DNA of 20,000 nt from an uncultured virus (IMG/VR IMGVR_UViG_3300021519_000008). Lineage: Duplodnaviria > Heunggongvirae > Uroviricota > Caudoviricetes. Positions 8,201 to 20,000 of the stretch are shown here, piece by piece. How positions within the stretch are numbered: position 1 is the stretch's first letter; the number at the start of each line of letters is the position of its first letter. The DNA lies in the IMG/VR virus record IMGVR_UViG_3300021519_000008, positions 54,088 to 74,087 of that record. One strand, given 5' to 3'. Below the pieces are notes generated by a model that saw nothing but the letters and a program-made list of their open reading frames with translations, made no database searches and was not told the DNA's origin. Both the position numbers and the translations under genes were made by a program.

Positions 8201-11200
8201 CTTAACTCAAGAAGAACACTCAGAAGTAATACAACAAGCTTCAGTTATAACTGCTAGAGAGAAGGAAACTCTTAAAGACGAAGACATATTACAACCTCAA
8301 GACGAGGATATAACATTAAACTCTTTACTTAAATCTATTGAAGCTGCTCCTGCAGAGATTCAAGTAGAGAATGAGATGGGTAATGTAGAAACAAAAAGAA
8401 ATGAAGAAAGAGTTACTAGAGAGCGTAGAGCTGTTATGTCTATTCCTAGAGCTAAATCTAAAGAACAAGCAAGAGGTAGAGTTAAAGCTATCTTTAAGAT
8501 ACTAGGTTATGATACTGAACAAATAAATAAAGCTTTAGAAGATCTTAACAAAGTATTTGATAATCAAGAAGTTACAAGTCCAGGTGAAATCTATGAAGGA
8601 TTTCTTCGCTTCCTTGATTCAAACTTATTACGTTCTTTACCTGATAGAGCTATTACAACTTCAGAAGATGTATTAGCTGAAGAACCTATAGTAACAGAAA
8701 CAGTAACTACTCCTACATCTACAGATGCTGTAGCTGATATAGAAAAAAGAAGACAAGAAGAGTTAAACAGAGAGGTGTATGGATATAATTATGAAGTAAA
8801 CTATAGACCAGATGTAGCAGCAGAATATGATACAGTCTTACAAGACTGGATTGACACTCCTAGTTATGCAGAAAGCAGAGAAAGAAATATTGAAGCAAAA
8901 AGAAAATATCTAGAAATCAATGCTAAGTATGATGCGGAATTAGCTGCTTTAGGACAGACTAGCACTACAATATCTGAAGAGGATGCTTTATTTGGAACTA
9001 ATGAAGAGATTGATGCTCGTAGAGGAGCAACAGAAGTTGTTGTACAAGGTCCTACAATAGATGCAGCAGATGAAGTAATAACTGAAACTCCTATTCCTGT
9101 AGTGGATCCATTAGATGGTTTAGAAGTAGTTGCTGCAAAGAGTATAGACTCTCCTAATCTAGTAGCAACTATTCCTACGGTATTTACAAATAGTAATGCA
9201 GTAGTACAAAGTTCTATTATGAGAACGATCAGTCAATCCTTAGAGTCTTTTAATTTAAAGTTAGTAGATATGTTCTCTTTTATAAGAGAGACTTTAGGAG
9301 AGTCAGCTATGCCTACCTTAGAGAAGATCTATAATAATGTAACAGAGGCGCTTAAAACAAACGACACAGAAACTATTGCTAGACTTAAAGAAGAGTACTT
9401 AGCTGTATTCAGTGGTAGTACATTTGCTAATGAGCAGTTAGAATATATCTGGAAAACACAATACGTAAACGGAAAACCTGATGCTTCCATTCCTTTCCAA
9501 GACTTAGCTTATGTTACCAATGGACAGTTTGCTACAGCATATCAAGGAGACGAAGTAATTGTTACTGCAGTAAAAAAAGAGACAGGAGAAGTGTTTACTT
9601 ATAATGCAACTGTAACAGGCAAAGTAAATGAATCAAACCAAATCGAAGTAAAGACTCGTAACGGTAATATAGTTTATATTAAGAAGAGCAACCTTCAAAC
9701 TATTGCTCCTAGAACAATAAGTGTAAGAGCAAACTTTAATCAAACTAACTCTATTATGATGACTGCAGTAGATAGAACTACTGGAGAAATTGCTAAGTTT
9801 AATTCTAATGGAGAAAGAGATGCTCAAGGAGATACACAGTTAAATACATTTGTTCCTCAAGCAAACCCAACAATGATTGAAGTAAGAAAGAGTCTTGCTT
9901 CAGGTCAACCTGTTGCTCACACTCTTCCTATACACGCAGGAGCAAGAATCAATAGTGCTTTTGCTTATGAAAAAGGAAAGACTTCTGTTTACTTAACAGC
10001 TTCGGTTACAGGAATTAATACTGATATACAAACAGTAGCACCTATAGTAGATGTAGAAAACATTCCAATAGAGCAAGCTCCTACTGCAGAAATTATTAAA
10101 GAAACAGAAGCAAAAATAAAAAGAAAAGACTTATTTGATGGAGTAGGAGAATTTTCTAGAATACTAGGGAATAGCGGAGTAGATTCTGTACCAGTATCTC
10201 ACTCCGAAAATAATGGGATAGAATTGGTTCAGTATGCAAATCCAAAAACTGGATCAGTCGATGTAATTGTTACGGGTACTTCTGATAATGACTTTGTTGG
10301 GTTCTATCGTATTTACGAAGATGGGAAGCCCACAAATAAATGGAGTTCAAAGTTTGAAAACCAATCTAGAAATAAAGAAAACTTTAAGACTATGATGGGC
10401 AGCGTGCAGGCTATATTACCAGAGGGGCATGAATACACAGAGAAAGCTTCTATTTCTACGGATGGATTAAGAGTATGGAATCAGCAATTAGCTCGTGGAT
10501 ATGAATTGCAATACGATGAAAGTGGTAAACTAAAAACAAATTTAGTAGCCATTAATGGGGATGCTATTCAAAACGAATTAGGCATACCTGTAGAGAAGGG
10601 AAATTTTGAAAATATAAAAGTAAAAACAAAAGAAGAATATGAGATAGCCAAGAAAGCTTTGTTACCTTATATGGAAAAATTTGGGTTAAACGAAAGTAAT
10701 ATTAATTGGTACACTGGTACTATTAAAATTGACTTACCTGTATTAAAAAAATCTTCACAACCTATAGATGCTAAAGCTGATATAGAAAAAAGAAGACAAG
10801 AAGAGTTAATTATTCCTAATACAAATGTTTCTTTGTATGACAGTGTTAAAAAACTAGAAAAAGGTATTGAAGGTATTACAAACAAAATAACTGAATTAGA
10901 AAAGAAAGGTAAAGGTATTATTGCTAATCAAATAACAGGAGTTACATCTCTTTCTGGACTAGCAACCGACAGGAAAAGATTAAAAGACATTCGTGAAAAA
11001 GAGTTGCAGAAAATAGACAAAATCAATGCTAAGTACGATGCAGAACTAGCTGCTTTAGGACAACCAGCATTTGAACCAGAAGTAACTACTAACTTAAGTA
11101 AAGATGAATTAGCTATTCTTTCTTTTGATACTAGTCAGATAGACAATCTAGAGATTTCTGAAAATTCTATAAATCAAAGTGATGCGAAAGAGATAGAGGA

Positions 11201-11222
11201 TGCAGCAAGCTGTAAACTATAA
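5289..11222 (+). CDS. Giant virion ejection/cargo protein, 1977 aa, modular (membrane-inserting region, EF-hand-like loop, internal repeats)
   Basis: G/A-rich hydrophobic segments and EGATE/EGAEE motifs typical of podophage ejection proteins, DLDGDGRITERD loop, and two ADIEKRRQEEL...INAKYDAELAALGQ repeats. Directly upstream of the RNAP, as for the large partner proteins in crAss-like phages. Confidence 0.7.
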   Translation: MPIEPVYNVPPKSGILTSRTVKLGDTEASRGLVDADISARNTQAQVAQINQQKEAIKLKAANDAKIDGALTTAAQVNLESAGALRPGILFALPSAKGTMGPQLTTEYQLVNQEKNRSKQILTESFAEKDPISEELDKKLGQVEDELNAFTSRKQQGSAITSVGAEAGGGAGGFLQDFIAEKALGQDTSLNKEQELKNTIANLKQSQATINSFKSDLQLKKFTTDYLTELKGQGKKFGEQEAATLMQKAKEITANQRHLTRGDDLYDDNTYNTYIKDFQGKNDFFDWRHTDISLGNAINSVYNQVKSAQGPEREELVGVLNQLQGYSKRHEGSNKDAYDHYYGGSKQYYKENTPWKTYLGNQIGGGVGEGLYNALGTIVSTSQDLLGYHSAAFASRQGKDKYFSADMLQADLDGDGRITERDQDINGQYQYIGKNVTYIKAGDGPDKKGRGDIGFIGQSVLGASVRTLAEMAPTLLLTRGMMAAGAGMRIATFAPVALTSTIRSYEENRKFFKDKGTAALVSSVQGIIEGATESIVPDISYFMGNKSLGTKALNNSSRKYFTAQTLVPEFTTLSNAGKNFLLGTVYAGKALGKQTLQEGAEEELSMFANYILDKQLETKDDLYGKREQELDDSSVEGFFKSVAKTFVESAAAGLLMSGTAIGSSRTEDRNYMRFNIANNPDQFKAELKSQLEAKKITQDQYNKGILETGRLSQLQEQATSTMMNLVDSENLLEDHDKQYEYFSKLLTRDDLLTKVDYNALSETEKAEYVKKVETVEKEIDSFENSARQYANMPKEEKEGILAKMFQKNLETVKNTNNPAVLSENLEAITDAIEIGEKTGKGSQVVISGRQQVREALVGQIERLQTVEDNGNTVYENQLLNTPIESAGESMQISNAVKLENLLTQNKNLVSPAVRQQLLGKIAQASSVARERLNSLSKKEQKKVIARELARVELIYPGTAFNKERLKTLFGQDLTQEEHSEVIQQASVITAREKETLKDEDILQPQDEDITLNSLLKSIEAAPAEIQVENEMGNVETKRNEERVTRERRAVMSIPRAKSKEQARGRVKAIFKILGYDTEQINKALEDLNKVFDNQEVTSPGEIYEGFLRFLDSNLLRSLPDRAITTSEDVLAEEPIVTETVTTPTSTDAVADIEKRRQEELNREVYGYNYEVNYRPDVAAEYDTVLQDWIDTPSYAESRERNIEAKRKYLEINAKYDAELAALGQTSTTISEEDALFGTNEEIDARRGATEVVVQGPTIDAADEVITETPIPVVDPLDGLEVVAAKSIDSPNLVATIPTVFTNSNAVVQSSIMRTISQSLESFNLKLVDMFSFIRETLGESAMPTLEKIYNNVTEALKTNDTETIARLKEEYLAVFSGSTFANEQLEYIWKTQYVNGKPDASIPFQDLAYVTNGQFATAYQGDEVIVTAVKKETGEVFTYNATVTGKVNESNQIEVKTRNGNIVYIKKSNLQTIAPRTISVRANFNQTNSIMMTAVDRTTGEIAKFNSNGERDAQGDTQLNTFVPQANPTMIEVRKSLASGQPVAHTLPIHAGARINSAFAYEKGKTSVYLTASVTGINTDIQTVAPIVDVENIPIEQAPTAEIIKETEAKIKRKDLFDGVGEFSRILGNSGVDSVPVSHSENNGIELVQYANPKTGSVDVIVTGTSDNDFVGFYRIYEDGKPTNKWSSKFENQSRNKENFKTMMGSVQAILPEGHEYTEKASISTDGLRVWNQQLARGYELQYDESGKLKTNLVAINGDAIQNELGIPVEKGNFENIKVKTKEEYEIAKKALLPYMEKFGLNESNINWYTGTIKIDLPVLKKSSQPIDAKADIEKRRQEELIIPNTNVSLYDSVKKLEKGIEGITNKITELEKKGKGIIANQITGVTSLSGLATDRKRLKDIREKELQKIDKINAKYDAELAALGQPAFEPEVTTNLSKDELAILSFDTSQIDNLEISENSINQSDAKEIEDAASCKL
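8719..8956 (+). repeat. Bipartite internal repeat, copy 1 (left flank 8719-8766, right flank 8914-8956)
   Basis: 8732-8766 is identical over 35 bp to 10775-10809. 8914-8956 matches 11020-11062 at 40 of 43 bp. Confidence 0.95.
10762..11062 (+). repeat. Bipartite internal repeat, copy 2 (left flank 10762-10809, right flank 11020-11062)
   Basis: Same flanks as copy 1, but the intervening sequence is unrelated and differs in length (210 bp vs 147 bp). Confidence 0.95.
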
Positions 11223-11252
11223 TAATTAAGTTTTAAAAGTATCAAACTAAAG

Positions 11253-11262
11253 TATATTTGTA
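11253..11262 (+). promoter_or_regulatory. TATATTTGTA promoter (-7 element) immediately upstream of the RNAP gene
   Basis: Same 10-mer as at 1163 and 18904, located in a 43 bp intergenic gap. No clear TTG -33 element. Confidence 0.7.
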
Positions 11263-11265
11263 AAG

Positions 11266-14200
11266 ATGGCAAAAATAAACTGTCCTGATAGGGGTAATAA
11301 AGATTTCTTAGATTTAAGTAATGCACTAGGCAGTGATGCTTTAGCTAAATTTATATGGTATAAGAATGGCAACCTTCCTTTAAATCAAACAGAGGACGCA
11401 GAGGGAAACATTGTACTTAGTGAAGTATATGATCGTATACTAAATGAAGTTGCAGAAGGTAATGAGGCACAAGCTTTAGCTATGGTCTCTACTATGTATC
11501 TTCCTAATTTCCAAGAAAAGTATAGAGAGGAAGATCCAGCCTTTACAGTTGACTACATCAAACAGGAAGTACAAGATCGTCAAGACAGAGCAGCTAAGAG
11601 ACAAGGACAACTTATAGAAGAGAAGATAATTCCAGGTACAAAAACTCTTTATATTCAAACACCTGAAGGAGACATTATATACACTCAAGAAGAGGGTAAG
11701 GAAATCTTTGACAGCTTAGAGTATTTATTGGCTACAAAGAAAAGTTGGAAAAGTACTGTTGACGCTTTGAAAGAAAGATTTGAAGACATTAGAACTAAAG
11801 TAAAAAACTCTACTGTAGATCCTAATGTTATAGTTACACCCCAAGATACTCTAGTAGGAAAGAATCTTGTTAACATTCTAAAGAACTGGCCTCAAGTAAA
11901 AGCTTGGTATCTAAGTCAAGAATCTGTATTTGGATTAGAAGCAATAGATGATGAGGTTAATCAAGAAGTAGGCAATAAGATTTACAATAAGAATGCGCAT
12001 GACTCAAGTCAGATGGATTTGGCTTCATCCCAAGTTATCAAACTAGTACAAGCTTTACCTAAGTACAATAAACTAACTACACAAGATAGAAAAGATATTA
12101 AGTCAGGTAAGAAAAGTATATCTGACTTTCAAGTAATAAGTAACATTACTGGATTTCCTGTAGTAGGAAACTTCTCTACTAACTGGAATGTACTTACTTC
12201 AAGTCTATCAGGAATAACTGAATACCCTAAAATTCTTGCAGAGTTAGCGGTAGTAGCACAAGAGTACCCACAGTTTAATGATATGGTTTCTTTGCTTCCT
12301 GAAGAGGATGTACAAGACGTAGACTTAAACACAGCAAACTTTGTAGCTTCTTTTGTACAGACAGTCTCTATGCCAGAAATTCTTGCATATCAACTATCTG
12401 TTAAAAAACTTACAGGTTCTACTGAATCAAGTAACTTAGTTAGTAAAGTATTCCAACTAGGTACTAGAACAACTGATAACTTAGTTAGGTACTTTGATGA
12501 GGATTACTTTAAGTCTAATCCTAAGTACGGAACTGTTAATGACAAAGGTGAGACAGTTTTAAATGTACCTAAGTTATTAGAGGATTTTAGTTACATAAAG
12601 AACATCAAACAATTCTTTGCAGGACGTAATAAACTTACAAACGAGAAGGGAGATTATACTCCAGAAGGCAAAGAGTTATTACAAGGGATACATAAGTTCT
12701 ACAATGCCTTAGGTATTATTCCTACTAATGCACTTTACCAAAAAGATAAGAAAGCGCTTTACGACTTTTTATCTGATACTACTTTTACTGTAAGAGAACT
12801 GTATGACAAATTAGAAGAAAGTATAGATAACACTTCTATTACTCAACCTTTACAATTTTTAGGTAAGTCACAGGGACCAGGTAAAGCACTAGGACCTAAG
12901 TTTGATGCTATTAATGCAGTTGTAGGATACTATGGTAAATTTGAAAGAGAGTTTGCTTCAGGTTCTTACTTTAACTCTGAAGATAAACTTCAGTATAATA
13001 GAGTACAGTACTTCTACCTTACTCAAGTAACTAATGCTTTAAACTCTGTAAAGAGTTATAACGAACTTATAGCTAAGCCAGAGTTTGCTCACCTTGATGT
13101 TAGATTGAATCCTAACATTATAGGATCTCTTTGGTTAGAAAAAATGTTTGGTATTACTGTTAAGGATAAAACCTTACCTCAGTTATACAAAGAACTTAAT
13201 TCAGGTAAACAGTTTCCTAGACTCAAAACACAGTTTAGTAAACAAGACTTTAAGATTAACATTGTAAACTTCTCAGGAGTTAAGGTTGAAGCAGATTTAA
13301 AAGACGGTGTAACTACTACCGAACTTACTTCGGAAGATAAAATTATACAAGATTTTGCTTCTTTCTTCCAAGAAGGTATGACAGAGAACATCCGCTTTGG
13401 AGACAAAGGAACTTCTTATGCTACCATGACCTCAGGTAAAGTAGAAGAAAGAATGTACGTACCTTTAGATCCTGCAGTATTAGGTAGTAATGAAAAGTCT
13501 ACTGTAGTAGAAAAAGTACTAGCAGACCAATTCAAAGCTTATCTAACTTCAGAAGTAGCAAGAGTACTTAACATTCTAAATAGCGATAAGAAGCACGTAT
13601 ACAATACAAAAGGAAAAGAGTTGTTCATATTCAAAGACATCCTTCCTAAAGAAGATTATGCTGACTTAACTAGTAGCGACAAAGCAACTGTTATAGCAGC
13701 CTTTACTCGTGTTAGTGATCAATTACCTACTCACTTGAGTAAGTACTTTGAAACACAAACTGCTCTCTACAAACAACGTCTAATAGAATCTACACTAGGA
13801 GACAAGAGTGCTATTACTGATAACTCTACTGAACAACAAAAGGATCAAGACTTAGCAAATATGTTAAATGCTTTAAACTTTGCTAATCCTGCCTTGTTTA
13901 AAAAGAATAAGATTACTCCACAAAACTTAGACTACGTTATAGCTAACTACTTAAAGAATGATTTCATTCATAAGGTAGAGTTCATGAAAGTCTTTGTAGG
14001 AGATATTGCTAACTTTCAAGTTAAGGGAGACTTCCGTGAGGTATTTAAACGTATTCCTTTTACTTCTTCTCCTGGATTTGTATTCCAAGACAATGCTGCT
14101 GTAATGGCTCACTTAAATAATAGTGGAAATACTAATGGGTTATACAAAGCATTAAGAGGAGCAACTCAGAAGTTTCGTAAGACAGTTAGAACAGTTGTCT

Positions 14201-17200
14201 TTAATGATGTAAATACTTTTAGTAAAGAAGACTGGCCTACTTACAGAGCAGCTTTAGGACTTCCTGATACATTAGAGTACCAAGAGTATGTCAACTCTCC
14301 TAAGGAAGCAGATGCTCAGGGTTTAGTTAGTTTAGATTTCTATCGTAACTATCTTATAGGATTAGGTCAATGGTCTCAAGAACAAGAGAACGCTTACTTA
14401 AATGAGATTGAAGTATTTAAAATCCTAAACAAGAAAGATAAAACTGAAGAGGACTATGCAAAGATGCAAGAACTCAAAGACAGTACAAACTACGTAGGAT
14501 TTCCTCCACTTAAGTTAGGTCACTACGGAGCTATTGTAGAGGATCCCAAGTTAACTGCTTTACATAAGTATTCTTTGGCTCCAATGATTCCTTCTATGAT
14601 TGCAGGAACCCAACTAGAGGAGTTGAATAAGCAAATGATTGCTAAGCAAATTGACTATGCAACATTTAACTCAGGTTCTAAAGCTTCTAACTATGGAGAT
14701 GCTTTGGACTTTTATGTACCAGATGCAGACAATGCAGGTACACTTAAAGTAAATCCTAGTATTAAAGGAAACAATATTACATCCCTACACTTAAAGAACC
14801 TTAAACAACAGCAGTATATTGCTCCTAAGTTGAAGAATGAAGCTACTCTCTCTACACAGATGGTTAAGCTTATTTTTGGGGATTTTTTTACTGCAGGAAA
14901 CCTAAGCAACTTGAATGCAAGTACTGCTAAGACAGTACAAAATTTATACAAAGAGTATGATCAAGTACTTGGTAATATTATTGGAATAGAAGAAGCTAAC
15001 TTGTTTCATAAATTAGGTTTAACTAGAGACTCTAACGGAGCTATATTAGGATTTGATAACAAGAAGTTCTATAACTTCCTAAAGAGTGAGATGGATAAGA
15101 GAGACACTAGTCAATCTCTTAGGCGCTACATTCAATTAGATGCAGCAGGAAACATCAAGTATCCCTTAGATGCTACTAAAAATAGAGCAGAGATAGAAAA
15201 CATTTTATTGTCTATTATCAATAATAAGATTATCTCTCAAAAAATTCACGGAGAGTCTTACATTCAAATGGCTTCTACAGCTCAAGGTAATACGAGATTT
15301 ACTAAGCCTACTGAAGAACAGATTAAGAAGTTTGGAATTAATGGATTAAGATTCTACCGTAAAGGGGTAAATGGTACAGAGCCTGCAGATGTTAAGATTG
15401 CGTTTAATCCTAAGAAACATGCTCCTCTATTAAACTTAACCTTTAAAGGACAGAAGATTGGTACAGTAGAAAGACTTAATAAAATTTTAAAGTCTAACAA
15501 CAGAGAAGCAGTAGAATGGGTAGATCAACATACAAAACAACTTAGCTTAGTAGGAGTACGTATTCCTGTACAGGGTTTAAACTCTATGGAGTATTTTAGG
15601 GTAAGAGAGTTCTTACCTACTAGTGCAGGTCCTGTAATTGTTGTTCCTGCTCAGATAGTTGTTAAGTCTGGTTCTGACTTTGATATAGATAAGTTAACTA
15701 TGTTTGAACCTAAATTGGATCAGAATGGTCAGTTGATTAGCGATGCAGGATTTACACTATCTAATTATAATAGTGCACTACCTAGTAAAGCAGAGTCTGT
15801 AAGATTGTTAAAGACCCTAAGAGCAGCTAAACAGTCTTTAGTTGAAACCCTAGAAACTATTCCTTCTTACTTAAACAAAAAAGAATTAGAGAAAGAGATA
15901 AAAGAGCTTAACGAATCTATGTCTTCTACCGAGGAGAACATAGGCAAGTTTGCTAATACAAAAATGAACTTAGAAGAACTTCAGGCTTTAATGTCAGAAG
16001 GATCTACTGAGAAAGAAGACTTGATTAAACAAAAGATAGAAGAAGTTAAAGCGTTAAGTAAGTCTGGGGAATTAGCGAGTGCATTATCTGCATTGAAAGC
16101 ACTCAAAAATGAAATTGGAGATTACTCATCTGTTGTGTCTAACGTAAACAACTTTAAAGATGGAAACGTTAATAGACTTATAGATGTGTTTACTTCAGTT
16201 ATCTCAATGCCTGAAAACTATAACAAGTTAGTTCTTCCTAACACAAACACAATTCTAACAAGTATTTCTGATAAATTAGATCAGAATCCAATTACTTCTA
16301 CTGGTTTGTTTAGTCCTCTTACATCTAATCGTGTATACGGAGATAACATTGAATCTAAGAAAGCTTTGGGTATTGATGCTAAACTTAACACAATGCAGAA
16401 GGAATTCCAGATTGCAGGTTTAGTTTACAATAACGAACTTTCTGGATTTTATCCTTTTGATGCAAACAGAGTAAATGGAGGTATTAGCTTAGGAGAACAA
16501 ACTCTTACAGATGGAACTGTTATCTCTAGGGTAATCAGTGAAACAATTAACGGGCACGTAGATATTGCAAAAGAAGATTGGATTATTCTTTTAGGTTTAG
16601 ATAAAGCTAAGACTCCTCTCTTTCATGCTATGATTCTTGCAGGTACTCCTGTAAGAACTGCTTTAGATTTCTTGAATAAGCCTTTAGTTAAATATGTACT
16701 TAAAGAATCTAACAGAGGTCTGTTGTTTAAACAAATTGGAATGAGAAGAAGAAGACCAGTTAGTATGACATTTAAGAATGTAATGGTGCAAACATTAAAA
16801 GACTTAAATGTATCCGACAACACTAAGTCTTACATTAATATTGCAATAGATACTTTTAGTAATAAAGATGTAGTTAAGTTTAAACCTTTGATGATGGATT
16901 TAAATCGTTTCATCACTGAAGGTGGAGTTAACAATGAATCAGATAAACAACAACTAGAAGATTTGTTTAACTTGTATATAATTAAAGAGTTACAAGGATC
17001 AGTTCAACAGTTAACTAGTTTAGTAGATTACAACACTAAGAGATTCCAAAACTCCTATCAAGTAAAAGCAGATGCAATTACTTATGGCAGAGTAGTAGAA
17101 AGTTTTAATAGAGACGGTTTAAATAAACTTACACAAGATTCTGCTTTATCTAACTTTAACCAAGCAGGAACAGTTCTTTCCATCATGCCACAAGTATTTG

Positions 17201-18381
17201 ATGTATCTAATCATCCTTCAGTATTAGATGCTATTTCACAATACACTAATAGAGCAGGAAAATATACTGACGATGACTTAGTAAAAGCATCTAAAAAGAT
17301 TAAAGACAATTATCTAGTAGCAATGGTTCAACTTTTTGGTGTAGATCAAACAGGTACTAAGTTACAAGACAAGTTCTTTTCTGCTTCTGGGTTGTTTAAT
17401 AAAACCTATTCTAATAACATAGCAAAGAAACTTGCTGACCTTACAGAAAAGTATAGTGATCTATCTAAAAATCAAATAATTGCTAACCTTTACACTGCTG
17501 AGAATTCGTCAAAGAATATTATCTTTAAGCTTAGAAATGCTAACCTAGATGCTTATCTAGTAGGTGAGTATGAGAAAGCATTTATAGAAGGACTTAACGA
17601 TGTGAGAGAAGATGTAAGCGAGTTATTTAAGAACATTGGTCTGGGTACATTCTTACAGTTTGGCTTTAGCAATAACTCTTATGGCTTATCTCAAGTAATT
17701 CCTTACGAGACTTACGTAGACCAAACGACTAAAGCAGTAAACAAACTTAAGTTAATGCAGGGGAACAAAATAGTATCTGAACAACTTGCTGGATATATTT
17801 CTCAGATGACTTATTTTAATGACAGCAAGGATGTTCCTACTTTAGTCTTAGATAAAAACGTAGCTAAGATAGAACATGAGCCAGACTTTAACGTTAGATT
17901 ACTTTTGATAGAAGAGAAAATAGATAGTGCTCTTAGAGGAATTCTAACTTTCCAAACTAAGAACTATACAAATCTTGAAAACCTTAAGTCTACAAATAGA
18001 TTCAGAGGACTTCGTATAGAGTTTGTAGATAAACTATCTACTAGTAAGAATACTCCAGTTGCTATGCGAAACTCTAACGGAGTTATTCAGATAGCAGAGA
18101 AGGACTTACTTAATAAGTTTAACGAGAAAGCATGGACTAAGTCAGCTAAACAAAAAGATGACAGTTATTCTACTCCTCTAGCTTCAGATGAGTTTAAATC
18201 ACTTGAAGAGTTTTTAACTTTTGCTTTAATACACGAAGTAAAACATGAGACTATTAAGAAGTCAGAAGACCAAACAATAGGTCAGTACGAAGATCAGATC
18301 AATGAAGCAGCTTTAGTTGATCTTAGAAACAACTACAAGCAAGAAAAGTTTGATGATGTAGTAGATCCATTTAAATGTTAA
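11266..18381 (+). CDS. Virion-packaged single-chain two-barrel DNA-dependent RNA polymerase (crAss-like, phi14:2 gp66-like) with a C-terminal zincin-like domain
   Basis: Catalytic GSDFDIDK (DFDID at 15676-15690, aa 1471-1475) preceded by RIPVQGLNS (R at 15559). Upstream ADAQG (14308-14322), PPLK, KYSLAPMIP and FNSGSK motifs, and downstream LGI.A and VDIAK (16558-16572). HEVKH at 18232-18246. Confidence 0.93.
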   Translation: MAKINCPDRGNKDFLDLSNALGSDALAKFIWYKNGNLPLNQTEDAEGNIVLSEVYDRILNEVAEGNEAQALAMVSTMYLPNFQEKYREEDPAFTVDYIKQEVQDRQDRAAKRQGQLIEEKIIPGTKTLYIQTPEGDIIYTQEEGKEIFDSLEYLLATKKSWKSTVDALKERFEDIRTKVKNSTVDPNVIVTPQDTLVGKNLVNILKNWPQVKAWYLSQESVFGLEAIDDEVNQEVGNKIYNKNAHDSSQMDLASSQVIKLVQALPKYNKLTTQDRKDIKSGKKSISDFQVISNITGFPVVGNFSTNWNVLTSSLSGITEYPKILAELAVVAQEYPQFNDMVSLLPEEDVQDVDLNTANFVASFVQTVSMPEILAYQLSVKKLTGSTESSNLVSKVFQLGTRTTDNLVRYFDEDYFKSNPKYGTVNDKGETVLNVPKLLEDFSYIKNIKQFFAGRNKLTNEKGDYTPEGKELLQGIHKFYNALGIIPTNALYQKDKKALYDFLSDTTFTVRELYDKLEESIDNTSITQPLQFLGKSQGPGKALGPKFDAINAVVGYYGKFEREFASGSYFNSEDKLQYNRVQYFYLTQVTNALNSVKSYNELIAKPEFAHLDVRLNPNIIGSLWLEKMFGITVKDKTLPQLYKELNSGKQFPRLKTQFSKQDFKINIVNFSGVKVEADLKDGVTTTELTSEDKIIQDFASFFQEGMTENIRFGDKGTSYATMTSGKVEERMYVPLDPAVLGSNEKSTVVEKVLADQFKAYLTSEVARVLNILNSDKKHVYNTKGKELFIFKDILPKEDYADLTSSDKATVIAAFTRVSDQLPTHLSKYFETQTALYKQRLIESTLGDKSAITDNSTEQQKDQDLANMLNALNFANPALFKKNKITPQNLDYVIANYLKNDFIHKVEFMKVFVGDIANFQVKGDFREVFKRIPFTSSPGFVFQDNAAVMAHLNNSGNTNGLYKALRGATQKFRKTVRTVVFNDVNTFSKEDWPTYRAALGLPDTLEYQEYVNSPKEADAQGLVSLDFYRNYLIGLGQWSQEQENAYLNEIEVFKILNKKDKTEEDYAKMQELKDSTNYVGFPPLKLGHYGAIVEDPKLTALHKYSLAPMIPSMIAGTQLEELNKQMIAKQIDYATFNSGSKASNYGDALDFYVPDADNAGTLKVNPSIKGNNITSLHLKNLKQQQYIAPKLKNEATLSTQMVKLIFGDFFTAGNLSNLNASTAKTVQNLYKEYDQVLGNIIGIEEANLFHKLGLTRDSNGAILGFDNKKFYNFLKSEMDKRDTSQSLRRYIQLDAAGNIKYPLDATKNRAEIENILLSIINNKIISQKIHGESYIQMASTAQGNTRFTKPTEEQIKKFGINGLRFYRKGVNGTEPADVKIAFNPKKHAPLLNLTFKGQKIGTVERLNKILKSNNREAVEWVDQHTKQLSLVGVRIPVQGLNSMEYFRVREFLPTSAGPVIVVPAQIVVKSGSDFDIDKLTMFEPKLDQNGQLISDAGFTLSNYNSALPSKAESVRLLKTLRAAKQSLVETLETIPSYLNKKELEKEIKELNESMSSTEENIGKFANTKMNLEELQALMSEGSTEKEDLIKQKIEEVKALSKSGELASALSALKALKNEIGDYSSVVSNVNNFKDGNVNRLIDVFTSVISMPENYNKLVLPNTNTILTSISDKLDQNPITSTGLFSPLTSNRVYGDNIESKKALGIDAKLNTMQKEFQIAGLVYNNELSGFYPFDANRVNGGISLGEQTLTDGTVISRVISETINGHVDIAKEDWIILLGLDKAKTPLFHAMILAGTPVRTALDFLNKPLVKYVLKESNRGLLFKQIGMRRRRPVSMTFKNVMVQTLKDLNVSDNTKSYINIAIDTFSNKDVVKFKPLMMDLNRFITEGGVNNESDKQQLEDLFNLYIIKELQGSVQQLTSLVDYNTKRFQNSYQVKADAITYGRVVESFNRDGLNKLTQDSALSNFNQAGTVLSIMPQVFDVSNHPSVLDAISQYTNRAGKYTDDDLVKASKKIKDNYLVAMVQLFGVDQTGTKLQDKFFSASGLFNKTYSNNIAKKLADLTEKYSDLSKNQIIANLYTAENSSKNIIFKLRNANLDAYLVGEYEKAFIEGLNDVREDVSELFKNIGLGTFLQFGFSNNSYGLSQVIPYETYVDQTTKAVNKLKLMQGNKIVSEQLAGYISQMTYFNDSKDVPTLVLDKNVAKIEHEPDFNVRLLLIEEKIDSALRGILTFQTKNYTNLENLKSTNRFRGLRIEFVDKLSTSKNTPVAMRNSNGVIQIAEKDLLNKFNEKAWTKSAKQKDDSYSTPLASDEFKSLEEFLTFALIHEVKHETIKKSEDQTIGQYEDQINEAALVDLRNNYKQEKFDDVVDPFKC

Positions 18382-18392
18382 AATAAGAAGAC

Positions 18393-18902
18393 ATGGCAAC
18401 TTGTAACGTAAGAACAACAAACAAAGAGTATATGGTTAGTAAGGGAGCCCTAGAGAATGGCTCTGCTAAAGTAAAGAATGAACGTCTGTTTGATGTGCAT
18501 AATGCAGAGATAAGAGATGCAGCAAACCAACGCTATAACCTAAAGACTGAAGAACTTCCTTTCTCTAAGGCAGTAAGAGATATTCCTAGAAGTGGTAGAA
18601 CAGCTTCTAACTTTTTTATAGAGTGGCAATTCAATGATAAGTTCTTTGATGAAGTAACTCCTATAGTAGAGATGTATAAATCTATGGAGGACATATCTGA
18701 AGAAGAAAATATGATTCAACCTTCTTATACTCAGACTCAACTAGACTTTAATGACCTAGTAAACGATGATATAATTATAAATGAGTCACCTATTAGATTT
18801 ACTTATCCTTACGAGGCAGAAGACTACATGGCAGACATGAGTCCTGAAATAAAGAAAGAACTTAGTAAAGTAGAATTTAAAGAACTAAACTGTAATCTTT
18901 AA
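18393..18902 (+). CDS. 169 aa hypothetical protein with acidic C-terminal half and Cys only at both termini
   Basis: ORF track. It fills the gap between the RNAP and the next large gene on the same strand with short spacers (MATC...ELNCNL). Confidence 0.75.
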   Translation: MATCNVRTTNKEYMVSKGALENGSAKVKNERLFDVHNAEIRDAANQRYNLKTEELPFSKAVRDIPRSGRTASNFFIEWQFNDKFFDEVTPIVEMYKSMEDISEEENMIQPSYTQTQLDFNDLVNDDIIINESPIRFTYPYEAEDYMADMSPEIKKELSKVEFKELNCNL

Positions 18903-18903
18903 C

Positions 18904-18913
18904 TATATTTGTA
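18904..18913 (+). promoter_or_regulatory. TATATTTGTA promoter (-7 element) upstream of the last gene
   Basis: Third copy of the 10-mer, intergenic, ending 23 bp before ATG 18937. Confidence 0.7.
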
Positions 18914-18936
18914 TTAACTTAAGATAAACTTAAATA

Positions 18937-20000
18937 ATGTCTTGTAAAGCATCAATAAAATCTCCCATTACTGGTAACACAGTATCCTCAACAGCATACT
19001 TTCAGTTAACTAATCTTTTTGACAAACAAAAAGCAGTAGACGTTTATAACAGTATGTACACTCCAGGGTTTAAAGACCTATTAGGATTTGATTGGACTAC
19101 TAACACAGCACACAGGGAGGAGTTAAACCTAAACGGAGAACCTAAGATTGAATATCTAAACAAGATATTAGGTTTAGATTTAAGTCAGTATCAGATTGAT
19201 GCAGTAAACTCAGAAGAAGATATCCTTAGTCAGTTAGATCCTACACAAGAATTTGATTCCTTTGAGGAAGCAAGTGTAGCAGCTGCTGGGTTTAACATGA
19301 ATCCAAGATACAAGAACGTATCTACAGATGTTGTTAGAACAGATAACGGATTTAGATTAACTGTAGGGATTAACCAATCTCCTCAAAGTATAACTAAAGA
19401 AACTTTATCTGCTTTAGGATTTGGAACACTTGTTACTCAGTTCTTTCCTTCTACTAATTCTAGTTGGAGTGATGTAGCCAATAGTTTGCTTACTGGTGAT
19501 CAGTTACCTGAGTTCCAAAAGAATATCTTATCTAAGTTAGTAGAACTACAGAATAAGAATGCTCGTGTGAAGCTTGTAGTGTTTGATGACACACAAGACT
19601 CAGATCCTGGACAAGTTGCTTTCTATGATAACAACACAGGAACAATTTACATAGGCAAGACTGTAAGTGAGAGTATGAACAATTCTAAGCTTGTTAGAGA
19701 CCTTATCCATGAGTCTTTGCATGCTTATACCATTAAAGCATTAAACGAGCCTGTAACAGAACAGGAGAAAGCATTTAAGGCAGATATGGAGAAGGTATTT
19801 AATTCTTACTTAAAGAAGTTCCCTAATCTAGCTGTTAACTATGGCTTTAAGAACGTAGAAGAGTTTGTAAGTGAGGTTATGTCTAACCCACACTTCAGAG
19901 CTGCTTTAACTACCCAACAAGAATCTTTAAAGAATGATAAGAATTTCTTAGGTAATCTCTTAGAGAAAATAGGTAACTTCTTTAAAGGACTATACACAGA
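18937..20000 (+). CDS. Large virion protein with zincin-like metallopeptidase domain, 3'-truncated (missing from ORF track)
   Basis: Open from ATG 18937 (MSCKASIKSPITG...) to the window end. AFYDNNTGTIYI...LIHESLHAYT (HESLH 19708-19722) and downstream YGFKNVEEFVSEVMSNPHF match the gluzincin-type pattern of phage polyvalent-protein peptidases. The N-terminus has a Y.P.FK...DW...NGEP motif. Confidence 0.85.
   Translation, partial: MSCKASIKSPITGNTVSSTAYFQLTNLFDKQKAVDVYNSMYTPGFKDLLGFDWTTNTAHREELNLNGEPKIEYLNKILGLDLSQYQIDAVNSEEDILSQLDPTQEFDSFEEASVAAAGFNMNPRYKNVSTDVVRTDNGFRLTVGINQSPQSITKETLSALGFGTLVTQFFPSTNSSWSDVANSLLTGDQLPEFQKNILSKLVELQNKNARVKLVVFDDTQDSDPGQVAFYDNNTGTIYIGKTVSESMNNSKLVRDLIHESLHAYTIKALNEPVTEQEKAFKADMEKVFNSYLKKFPNLAVNYGFKNVEEFVSEVMSNPHFRAALTTQQESLKNDKNFLGNLLEKIGNFFKGLYT

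Follow-up and report, generated by a model that had tools for sequence, protein, structure and literature searches.

We analyzed a window of 20,000 nucleotides, the final 20 kilobases (kb) of the 74-kb linear virus record IMGVR_UViG_3300021519_000008, which carries a row of plus-strand genes for cargo proteins. Four of these proteins, referred to below as A, B, adaptor and C, have cysteines (Cys) only at those termini that face each other in gene order. Comparison with related loci strongly supports a functional pairing of these termini in which, in protein order, each C-terminus would go with the N-terminus of the following protein. From the whole of the analysis it appears rather likely that A, B, the adaptor and C are joined by terminal disulfides into a head-to-tail chain of ∼6,500 residues.

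The record represents a Crassvirales genome, since its proteins match the Pfam families of the crassvirus capsid (Crass_capsid, E = 1.1e-26), of ring proteins 1 and 2 (CrAss_Ring_1, 5.7e-09; CrAss_Ring_2, 1.8e-17) and of the muzzle (crAss_MUZ, 3.7e-41); among the same proteins CrAss_Ring_3_4 stayed below its cut-off. The muzzle protein, with 2034 amino acids (aa) and 34 Cys, is encoded upstream of the window. Plus-strand open reading frames (ORFs) of 784, 561, 1977, 2371 and 169 aa stand in a row within the window, and a sixth one, with 354 visible aa, runs off its end (Table 1). By sequence similarity and motif, the 2371-aa ORF is a crassvirus virion RNA polymerase: it resembles the virion RNA polymerase g066 (gp66) of Cellulophaga phage phi14:2 (tblastn E = 5e-18, 25% identity, residues 882–1482), and it contains a DxDxD catalytic motif in which G1469, D1471, D1473, D1475 and K1476 are invariant across 24 polymerase homologs. 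A phmmer search with the single polymerase sequence against PDB gave no match. Judging from this homology and from their location after the muzzle and cargo genes, the polymerase and its neighbors are probably packed in the particle and injected.

The six cargo ORFs together contain six Cys in 7,871 residues, each of them within six residues of an end (P = 1.4e-12 for six uniformly placed Cys all lying within 6 residues of a visible end). Across A, B, the adaptor and C they follow the pattern C / N..C / N..C / N, and neither outer end of the chain carries one. On a 99%-identical 99-kb contig (L002) the last ORF is complete and encodes 2009 aa with Cys3 as its sole Cys, so that the chain ends cleanly. 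An initial annotation, made from the window alone, had listed these Cys with their coordinates and had described a C-terminal Cys only in the first member, one at each end of the middle members and none in the two upstream proteins; translation confirmed every count, coordinate and placement.

Terminal cysteines at protein boundaries in related loci

The terminal Cys are retained in distant homologs of the chain members. We collected 120 polymerase homologs of 1,563–4,145 aa with 22–99% identity and scored Cys as terminal if they lie within the first or last 12 residues. An N-terminal Cys is present in 107, a C-terminal Cys in 115 and both in 102 of them; 88 have exactly these two Cys and no other, and interior positions account for only 29 Cys per 384,006 residues. 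The 13 proteins without the N-terminal Cys comprise ten of >3,500 aa that keep the C-terminal Cys and that, judged as a group rather than one by one, look as would be expected of fusions of A and B, one truncated protein with a Leu start, as well as P0021 and P0120. The C-terminal Cys falls outside the last 12 residues in five homologs: in two it is found at −13 and −40, P0013 (1,563 aa) may be truncated, and P0027 and P0113 are full-length. In the alignment of 24 polymerases, Cys6 of B is invariant alongside the catalytic aspartates, and it is the sole invariant column in 46 aligned N-terminal 400-aa stretches of B. Likewise, the C-terminal Cys is the sole nearly invariant column in 46 aligned C-terminal 200-aa stretches of A.

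Homologs of A and of the adaptor show the same placement. None of 71 matches to A has an N-terminal Cys. In each of the 38 that cover ≥36% of the query, one Cys is found at −3 to −6 and no other. For the remaining 33, the similarity is confined to a domain spanning 10–20% of the query; a C-terminal Cys is found in 13 of these and is missing from 20. In 30 adaptor homologs with 56–98% identity, Cys4 is present throughout and Cys167 in 29, the exception being truncated.

To what extent pairs are retained at gene junctions was assessed in 80 loci, recovered in a profile scan of viral contigs with the motif pattern G[SGA]DFD[IV]DK, built on the invariant catalytic residues, of which 10 redundant ones were dropped and 70 kept. 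The cargo block was defined as ORFs of ≥1000 aa plus anything between them, and a junction was counted as paired if a Cys lies within 12 residues on both sides. Cys are present on both sides at 118 of 125 junctions. Among the seven unpaired ones, one reflects a miscalled start in L008 (true start MASC), one has its Cys at −19 (L011), and five lie beside inserted ORFs in L044 and L064. Four ORFs between chain members, including the 197-aa ORF of L022, lack Cys; three are GIY-YIG endonucleases according to Pfam and one is without a Pfam family, and the Cys pair survives across the inserted ORFs in these loci. Apart from the endonucleases and the unassigned 217-aa ORF next to one of them, all sandwiched ORFs seen have both Cys.

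The outer ends of the block are bare: among 39 first giant proteins, 32 start without a Cys at the N-terminus and the other seven have an upstream partner that is truncated (<1000 aa) or off the contig; among 53 last proteins, the C-terminus is without Cys in 50, and the other three precede a truncated downstream ORF. Where a terminal Cys is present, it occupies position 3–6 at the N-terminus (130/132) or one of the last five residues at the C-terminus (122/130). Interior Cys across the 70 loci amount to 44 per 449,366 residues (0.01%), compared to 125 per 14,892 (0.84%) in ORFs downstream of the block. Conservation of Cys position in homologous loci was a check that the initial annotation had proposed, and the terminal Cys passed it both in the polymerases and at the junctions.

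Fusions and splits of the cargo genes show that the pairs track protein boundaries. In the A+B fusions of L019, L054, L076, L079 and L082 there is no Cys near the junction; the N-terminal region of the polymerase maps to about residues 1700–2050 of these proteins, and the few interior Cys lie at residue ≥2750. The only Cys of the L019 fusion is at −5, and a B+C fusion of >5945 aa in L071 carries Cys5 alone. Conversely, small links between B and C (583, 396, 655 and 252 aa) have Cys at both ends, and the unsplit forms have none at the equivalent sites. The 583-aa link of L045 corresponds to residues 2–563 of the unsplit C of L077 (E = 2e-114), which has only Cys4 and Cys1647, and the 396-aa link of L022, where an endonuclease gene is found at the split, corresponds to residues 1–352 of C in L075 (E = 1.5e-88; Cys3 only). 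For the 655-aa link of L040, matches were obtained with a part of C in L043 and a part of B in L068; in the 252-aa link of L052 it is the C-terminal half that matches, namely to the C-terminal end of B from several loci.

A break of another kind is seen in cr108_1, where a group I intron (L091 21331–21649; Rfam RF00028, 80 bits) lies inside the catalytic GSD/FDIDK motif of the polymerase gene. The two polymerase halves have no Cys at the intron break; this split is healed at the RNA level, so that no Cys pair is needed. The record of cr108_1 annotates the two halves as separate proteins. Thus, pairs are gained at splits and absent at fusions, as predicted by pairing across junctions and not by ring closure or homodimers. 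Whether Cys pairs come and go with gene fusion and splitting had also been put forward in the initial annotation as a test, and the outcome bears it out.

The adaptor itself does not appear to be a simple split product, because C of the window aligns from residue 1 with its counterparts in adaptor-less relatives. No matches beyond close relatives were found by blastp or phmmer, and a four-sequence adaptor profile matches weakly to the N-terminus of C in L043 (E = 4.6e-5) and to a 165-aa link of L080 (E = 1.6e-3). A low-confidence structure model (mean predicted local distance difference test score 60.7) shows a folded N-terminal half and then a low-confidence tail that ends in a helix.

Cultured crassviruses obey the terminal-Cys rule as well. 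The cargo blocks of phi14:2 (g067-g066-g065) and crAss001 (gp47-gp50-gp49) are homologous modules that follow the same rule as the window, although with three members and no adaptor instead of four including the adaptor. In crAss001 the block is partly inverted: gp47, with its sole Cys at −3, is encoded on one strand, and gp50 (Cys5, one interior Cys and one at −9) and gp49 (Cys5 only) are inverted on the other. As the rule holds despite this inversion, the Cys pattern follows protein order and not DNA adjacency. According to record notes and PMC10172136, the cargo proteins of both phages are found in virions; the same paper places disulfides of crAss001 particles in the tail and gives the three crAss001 proteins as 262.5, 276.9 and 154.5 kDa, which adds up to ∼694 kDa. 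The terminal pair is also mostly retained in six fecal crassviruses.

Possible bonds between the facing termini

The same pattern has been resolved in one other phage. In the pre-ejectosome of the cyanopodophage A4, cryo-electron microscopy revealed that Cys1715 of gp27 and Cys5 of gp26 form a disulfide, the C-terminal helix of gp27 sitting in a cleft of gp26 (PNAS 2025, PMC12002296). In the genome of Anabaena phage A-4L, ORF27 encodes 1717 aa with Cys1715 as its sole Cys, and ORF26 encodes 1114 aa with Cys5 as its sole Cys. A4 and the window thus have in common adjacent ordered genes and a sole Cys three residues from the end that faces an N-terminal Cys of the next protein. They differ in that A4 has one link between two proteins, neither of them a polymerase, whereas three links among four proteins, including a small adaptor, are predicted for the window. 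No homology of gp27 or gp26 to crassvirus proteins was detected by phmmer at E 0.01 in all ORFs of the 80 loci and the 120 polymerase homologs. The resemblance has either arisen by convergence or is too ancient to be recognized.

Since this pattern corresponds to a disulfide in A4, a disulfide is the most likely bond in the crassvirus cargo as well, and by this analogy we infer an S–S bond there; ordered ejection and reductive release are predicted in addition. Regarding the C-to-N linkage proposed in the initial annotation, the pairing of termini is strongly supported by conservation, splits, fusions and two-Cys adaptors, and the disulfide is its most likely form by analogy to A4. The statement in the same annotation that no description of such a link was known does not hold, as the bond between the A4 ejection proteins had already been published. 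In the part of the A4 paper available (PMC12002296) it is presented as a structural detail and not as a rule or a chain.

In the proposed mechanism, each C-terminal Cys would form a disulfide with the N-terminal Cys of the following protein inside the particle, resulting in an unbranched thread of ∼6,500 residues with a 1:1:1:1 stoichiometry. Linked at its very ends, this thread could traverse a narrow channel as one polypeptide would. With no Cys in the interior, wrong or branching links would be avoided, and the proteins would be released by reduction once in the host cytoplasm. Co-folding of the C-terminal 200 aa of A with the N-terminal 400 aa of B (46-row alignments each), run without controls, gave a score of 0.19 against a mark of 0.32, which counts neither for nor against the pairing.

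Several points weigh against a disulfide-linked chain. Phage particles assemble in the reducing cytoplasm and gut crassviruses live without oxygen, yet the latter keep the pair; an oxidant would therefore be needed, and oxidation would have to occur later than assembly. Among the genes of the visible 74 kb, none for a redox enzyme was seen. The offset of the C-terminal Cys and the position of the N-terminal Cys of its partner do not co-vary (rho −0.16, p 0.08). In the six fecal crassviruses interior Cys are ∼18 times more common than in the 70 loci (67 per 38,421 vs. 44 per 449,366 residues), the last Cys of the fused protein of cr273_1 lies 50 residues from the annotated end, and the record of IAS virus has ambiguous bases at one junction. 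Moreover, the linked species in crassviruses is a predicted one.

The termini might also be held together by something other than a disulfide, their thiols, perhaps from two or more copies of a junction, coordinating a metal ion as in the zinc hook of Rad50 or forming another bridge. With such a bridge, too, pairs would be expected to appear at splits and to be missing at fusions, and it requires no oxidant, which would suit anaerobic gut phages that keep the pair. We nevertheless consider it unlikely, since there is a single Cys per terminus, His is rare in these proteins (0.13–1.13%), and the one solved case of the pattern, A4, is a direct S–S bond (PMC12002296). A slightly less probable alternative is that the terminal Cys stay unbonded as long as they are in the particle, their thiols coming into play once the proteins have been injected, e.g., in cytoplasmic assembly or regulation of a polymerase complex. 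The three large proteins are annotated as polymerase-associated (PMC10172136), and the pattern would still track protein boundaries if the termini dock together, but free thiols leave unexplained both the ∼85-fold purge of interior Cys compared to neighboring genes and the bond within the A4 particle. Clearly more improbable is that the Cys are linked elsewhere, i.e., in homodimers, to the portal or tail, or to the other end of the same protein, with B and the adaptor as rings and A joined to C. Counts of N- and C-terminal Cys alone cannot separate these topologies. However, a new pair at splits, its absence at fusions and bare outer ends would not be expected from homodimers or from ring closure; loci with A and B fused, such as L019, leave one Cys on each of two proteins, and the A4 bond joins two different proteins.

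We also considered that the TGT codons might simply result from a nucleotide signal at the junctions, be it a promoter, a signal for translational coupling or the word YTGTAA, and regard this as practically negligible. Five of the six Cys codons do lie within YTGTAA, and the octamer TATATTTG occurs in two of the spacers. However, YTGTAA is found 18 times across the window, the Cys rule persists where endonuclease genes are inserted and, in crAss001, in the absence of DNA adjacency, and Cys is kept as an amino acid even at 22% identity. The count of YTGTAA, the inversion in crAss001 and the persistence across endonuclease inserts rule out a DNA-motif origin of the Cys codons. As a class, TANNTTTG is not enriched either (19 matches vs. 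25 expected). In the cargo ORFs, six in-frame TGY codons contrast with 67.5 expected from position-specific base composition, and out of frame TGY occurs 82 and 347 times. Scarce in frame and common out of frame, these codons indicate that the purge of Cys acts on the protein and not on the DNA. Split inteins or trans-splicing were rejected as well: no Pfam family is found at E 0.01 in any of the six cargo ORFs, and there is no room for an intein because the Cys lie 0–5 residues from the ends.

A purge of Cys from injected proteins appears to be general among podophages. N4-like phages (Schitoviridae) have a Cys-free ejection operon, for which passage through the oxidizing periplasm is given as the rationale (PMC11445570), and their giant injected proteins, including the virion RNA polymerase, are purged of Cys as in the window. 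According to the same text they keep no Cys at all, in contrast to the cargo of the window with its six facing terminal Cys. In T7 (L095), gp15 and gp16 are Cys-free and gp14 has only Cys2, and there is no facing pair.

No description of terminal Cys in crassvirus cargo was found in the full-text literature, subscription journals being outside its coverage. The available sections of Bayfield 2023 treat tail disulfides and cargo proteins without mention of terminal Cys in the cargo, and the term ‘cysteine’ is absent from the Drobysheva preprint in full-text term counts. A 2026 paper on N4 still lists the crassvirus ejection proteins as unresolved. The A4 bond is the only precedent found, published in 2025 neither as a rule nor as a chain, nor for crassviruses.

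It is quite possible, although we hold this more tentatively than the chain itself, that crassviruses and, independently, at least one cyanophage build a reduction-cleavable, post-translational ‘polyprotein’ that delivers the polymerase and its partners in fixed order and equal numbers. As a new Cys pair can restore continuity, splits of the genes would be tolerated, also when a homing endonuclease gene has been inserted, and the genes could shed small adaptor links or re-fuse. If true, this would account for the drift of protein boundaries across the order under a conserved thread, and thereby for the unusual freedom of the giant cargo genes to split and fuse.

How podophages push megadalton protein loads through a narrow tail, and in which order, is an open question; in the available part of Bayfield 2023, ejection order is considered ‘likely to be controlled’ by packing and mutual interactions. 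If real, a covalent end-to-end chain would answer this in simple physical terms for the phage order that is most abundant in the human gut. The sequence rule is also useful for crassvirus annotation, as it indicates true starts and ends of giant ORFs, protein order and chain membership.

Cargo proteins, neighboring genes and candidate promoters

Table 1. Cargo genes and terminal Cys codons in the 20,000-nucleotide window.
Feature	Position	Strand	Remarks
Cargo protein, 784 aa	1234..3588	+	0 Cys; not a chain member; C1-like
Cargo protein, 561 aa	3592..5277	+	0 Cys; not a chain member; C2-like
Chain member A, 1977 aa	5289..11222	+	Sole Cys is residue 1975, third from end; N-terminus without Cys
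Cys1975 codon (TGT) of A	11211..11213	+	
Chain member B, 2371 aa, virion RNA polymerase (phi14:2 gp66-like)	11266..18381	+	Cys6 and Cys2371 only
Cys6 codon of B	11281..11283	+	Invariant column (24- and 46-sequence alignments)
Cys2371 codon, final residue of B	18376..18378	+	C-terminal Cys in 115/120 homologs
Adaptor link, 169 aa	18393..18902	+	Cys4 (18402) and Cys167 (18891) only
Chain member C, N-terminal 354 of 2009 aa	18937..19998	+	Cys3 (18943) is sole Cys

The complete protein C matches g065 of phi14:2 (phmmer E = 9.3e-16). The genes for the 784- and 561-aa proteins occupy the place of crAss001 gp45 and gp46 after the muzzle gene, and phmmer detected no similarity of these proteins to gp45/gp46 or to g069/g068; their labels as C1- and C2-like are therefore based on position and size alone.

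Protein A contains a domain of ∼240 aa, encoded at about 10050–10850 (residues ∼1590–1850), which shares 65–80% identity with a domain of giant proteins that are not related otherwise and have few Cys or none. It is mostly absent from a 1570-aa version of A in near-identical relatives and thus looks like an exchangeable cargo domain. No family could be assigned, all matches in an Atlas search being below 0.9.

Upstream of the cargo genes, the window contains the end of a gene for a 190-aa DUF6321 protein (2–217; full ORF G000:C1:53732-54304), whose final residue is a Cys that is retained in L006, L007 and L009. This Cys has no obvious partner, because the next virion protein lacks an N-terminal Cys. 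Between this gene and the first cargo gene lies a free-standing gene for a GIY-YIG homing endonuclease (398–1129), followed by a hairpin and a T run. Relatives carry such genes between chain members, too, and in L022 at a gene split.

Two further proteins of the record are of note. One is a Gly/Ser/Thr-rich, tail-fiber-like protein of 2110 aa (G000:C1:11218-17550; PHROG tail fibre, 2.9e-08) with a single Cys 16 residues from its end. The other is a Cys-free 633-aa protein (G000:C1:20612-22513) with both a cohesin and a type IX secretion C-terminal sorting domain, the combination of which indicates a Bacteroidota host.

The octamer TATATTTG occurs three times, at 1163–1170, 11253–11260 and 18904–18911, always on the plus strand and in the spacers before the 784-aa, polymerase and 2009-aa genes. 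The consensus of the −7 box in Bacteroidota is TAnnTTTG. The octamer fits this box, and the three sites may be candidate promoters that split the cargo module into three units.

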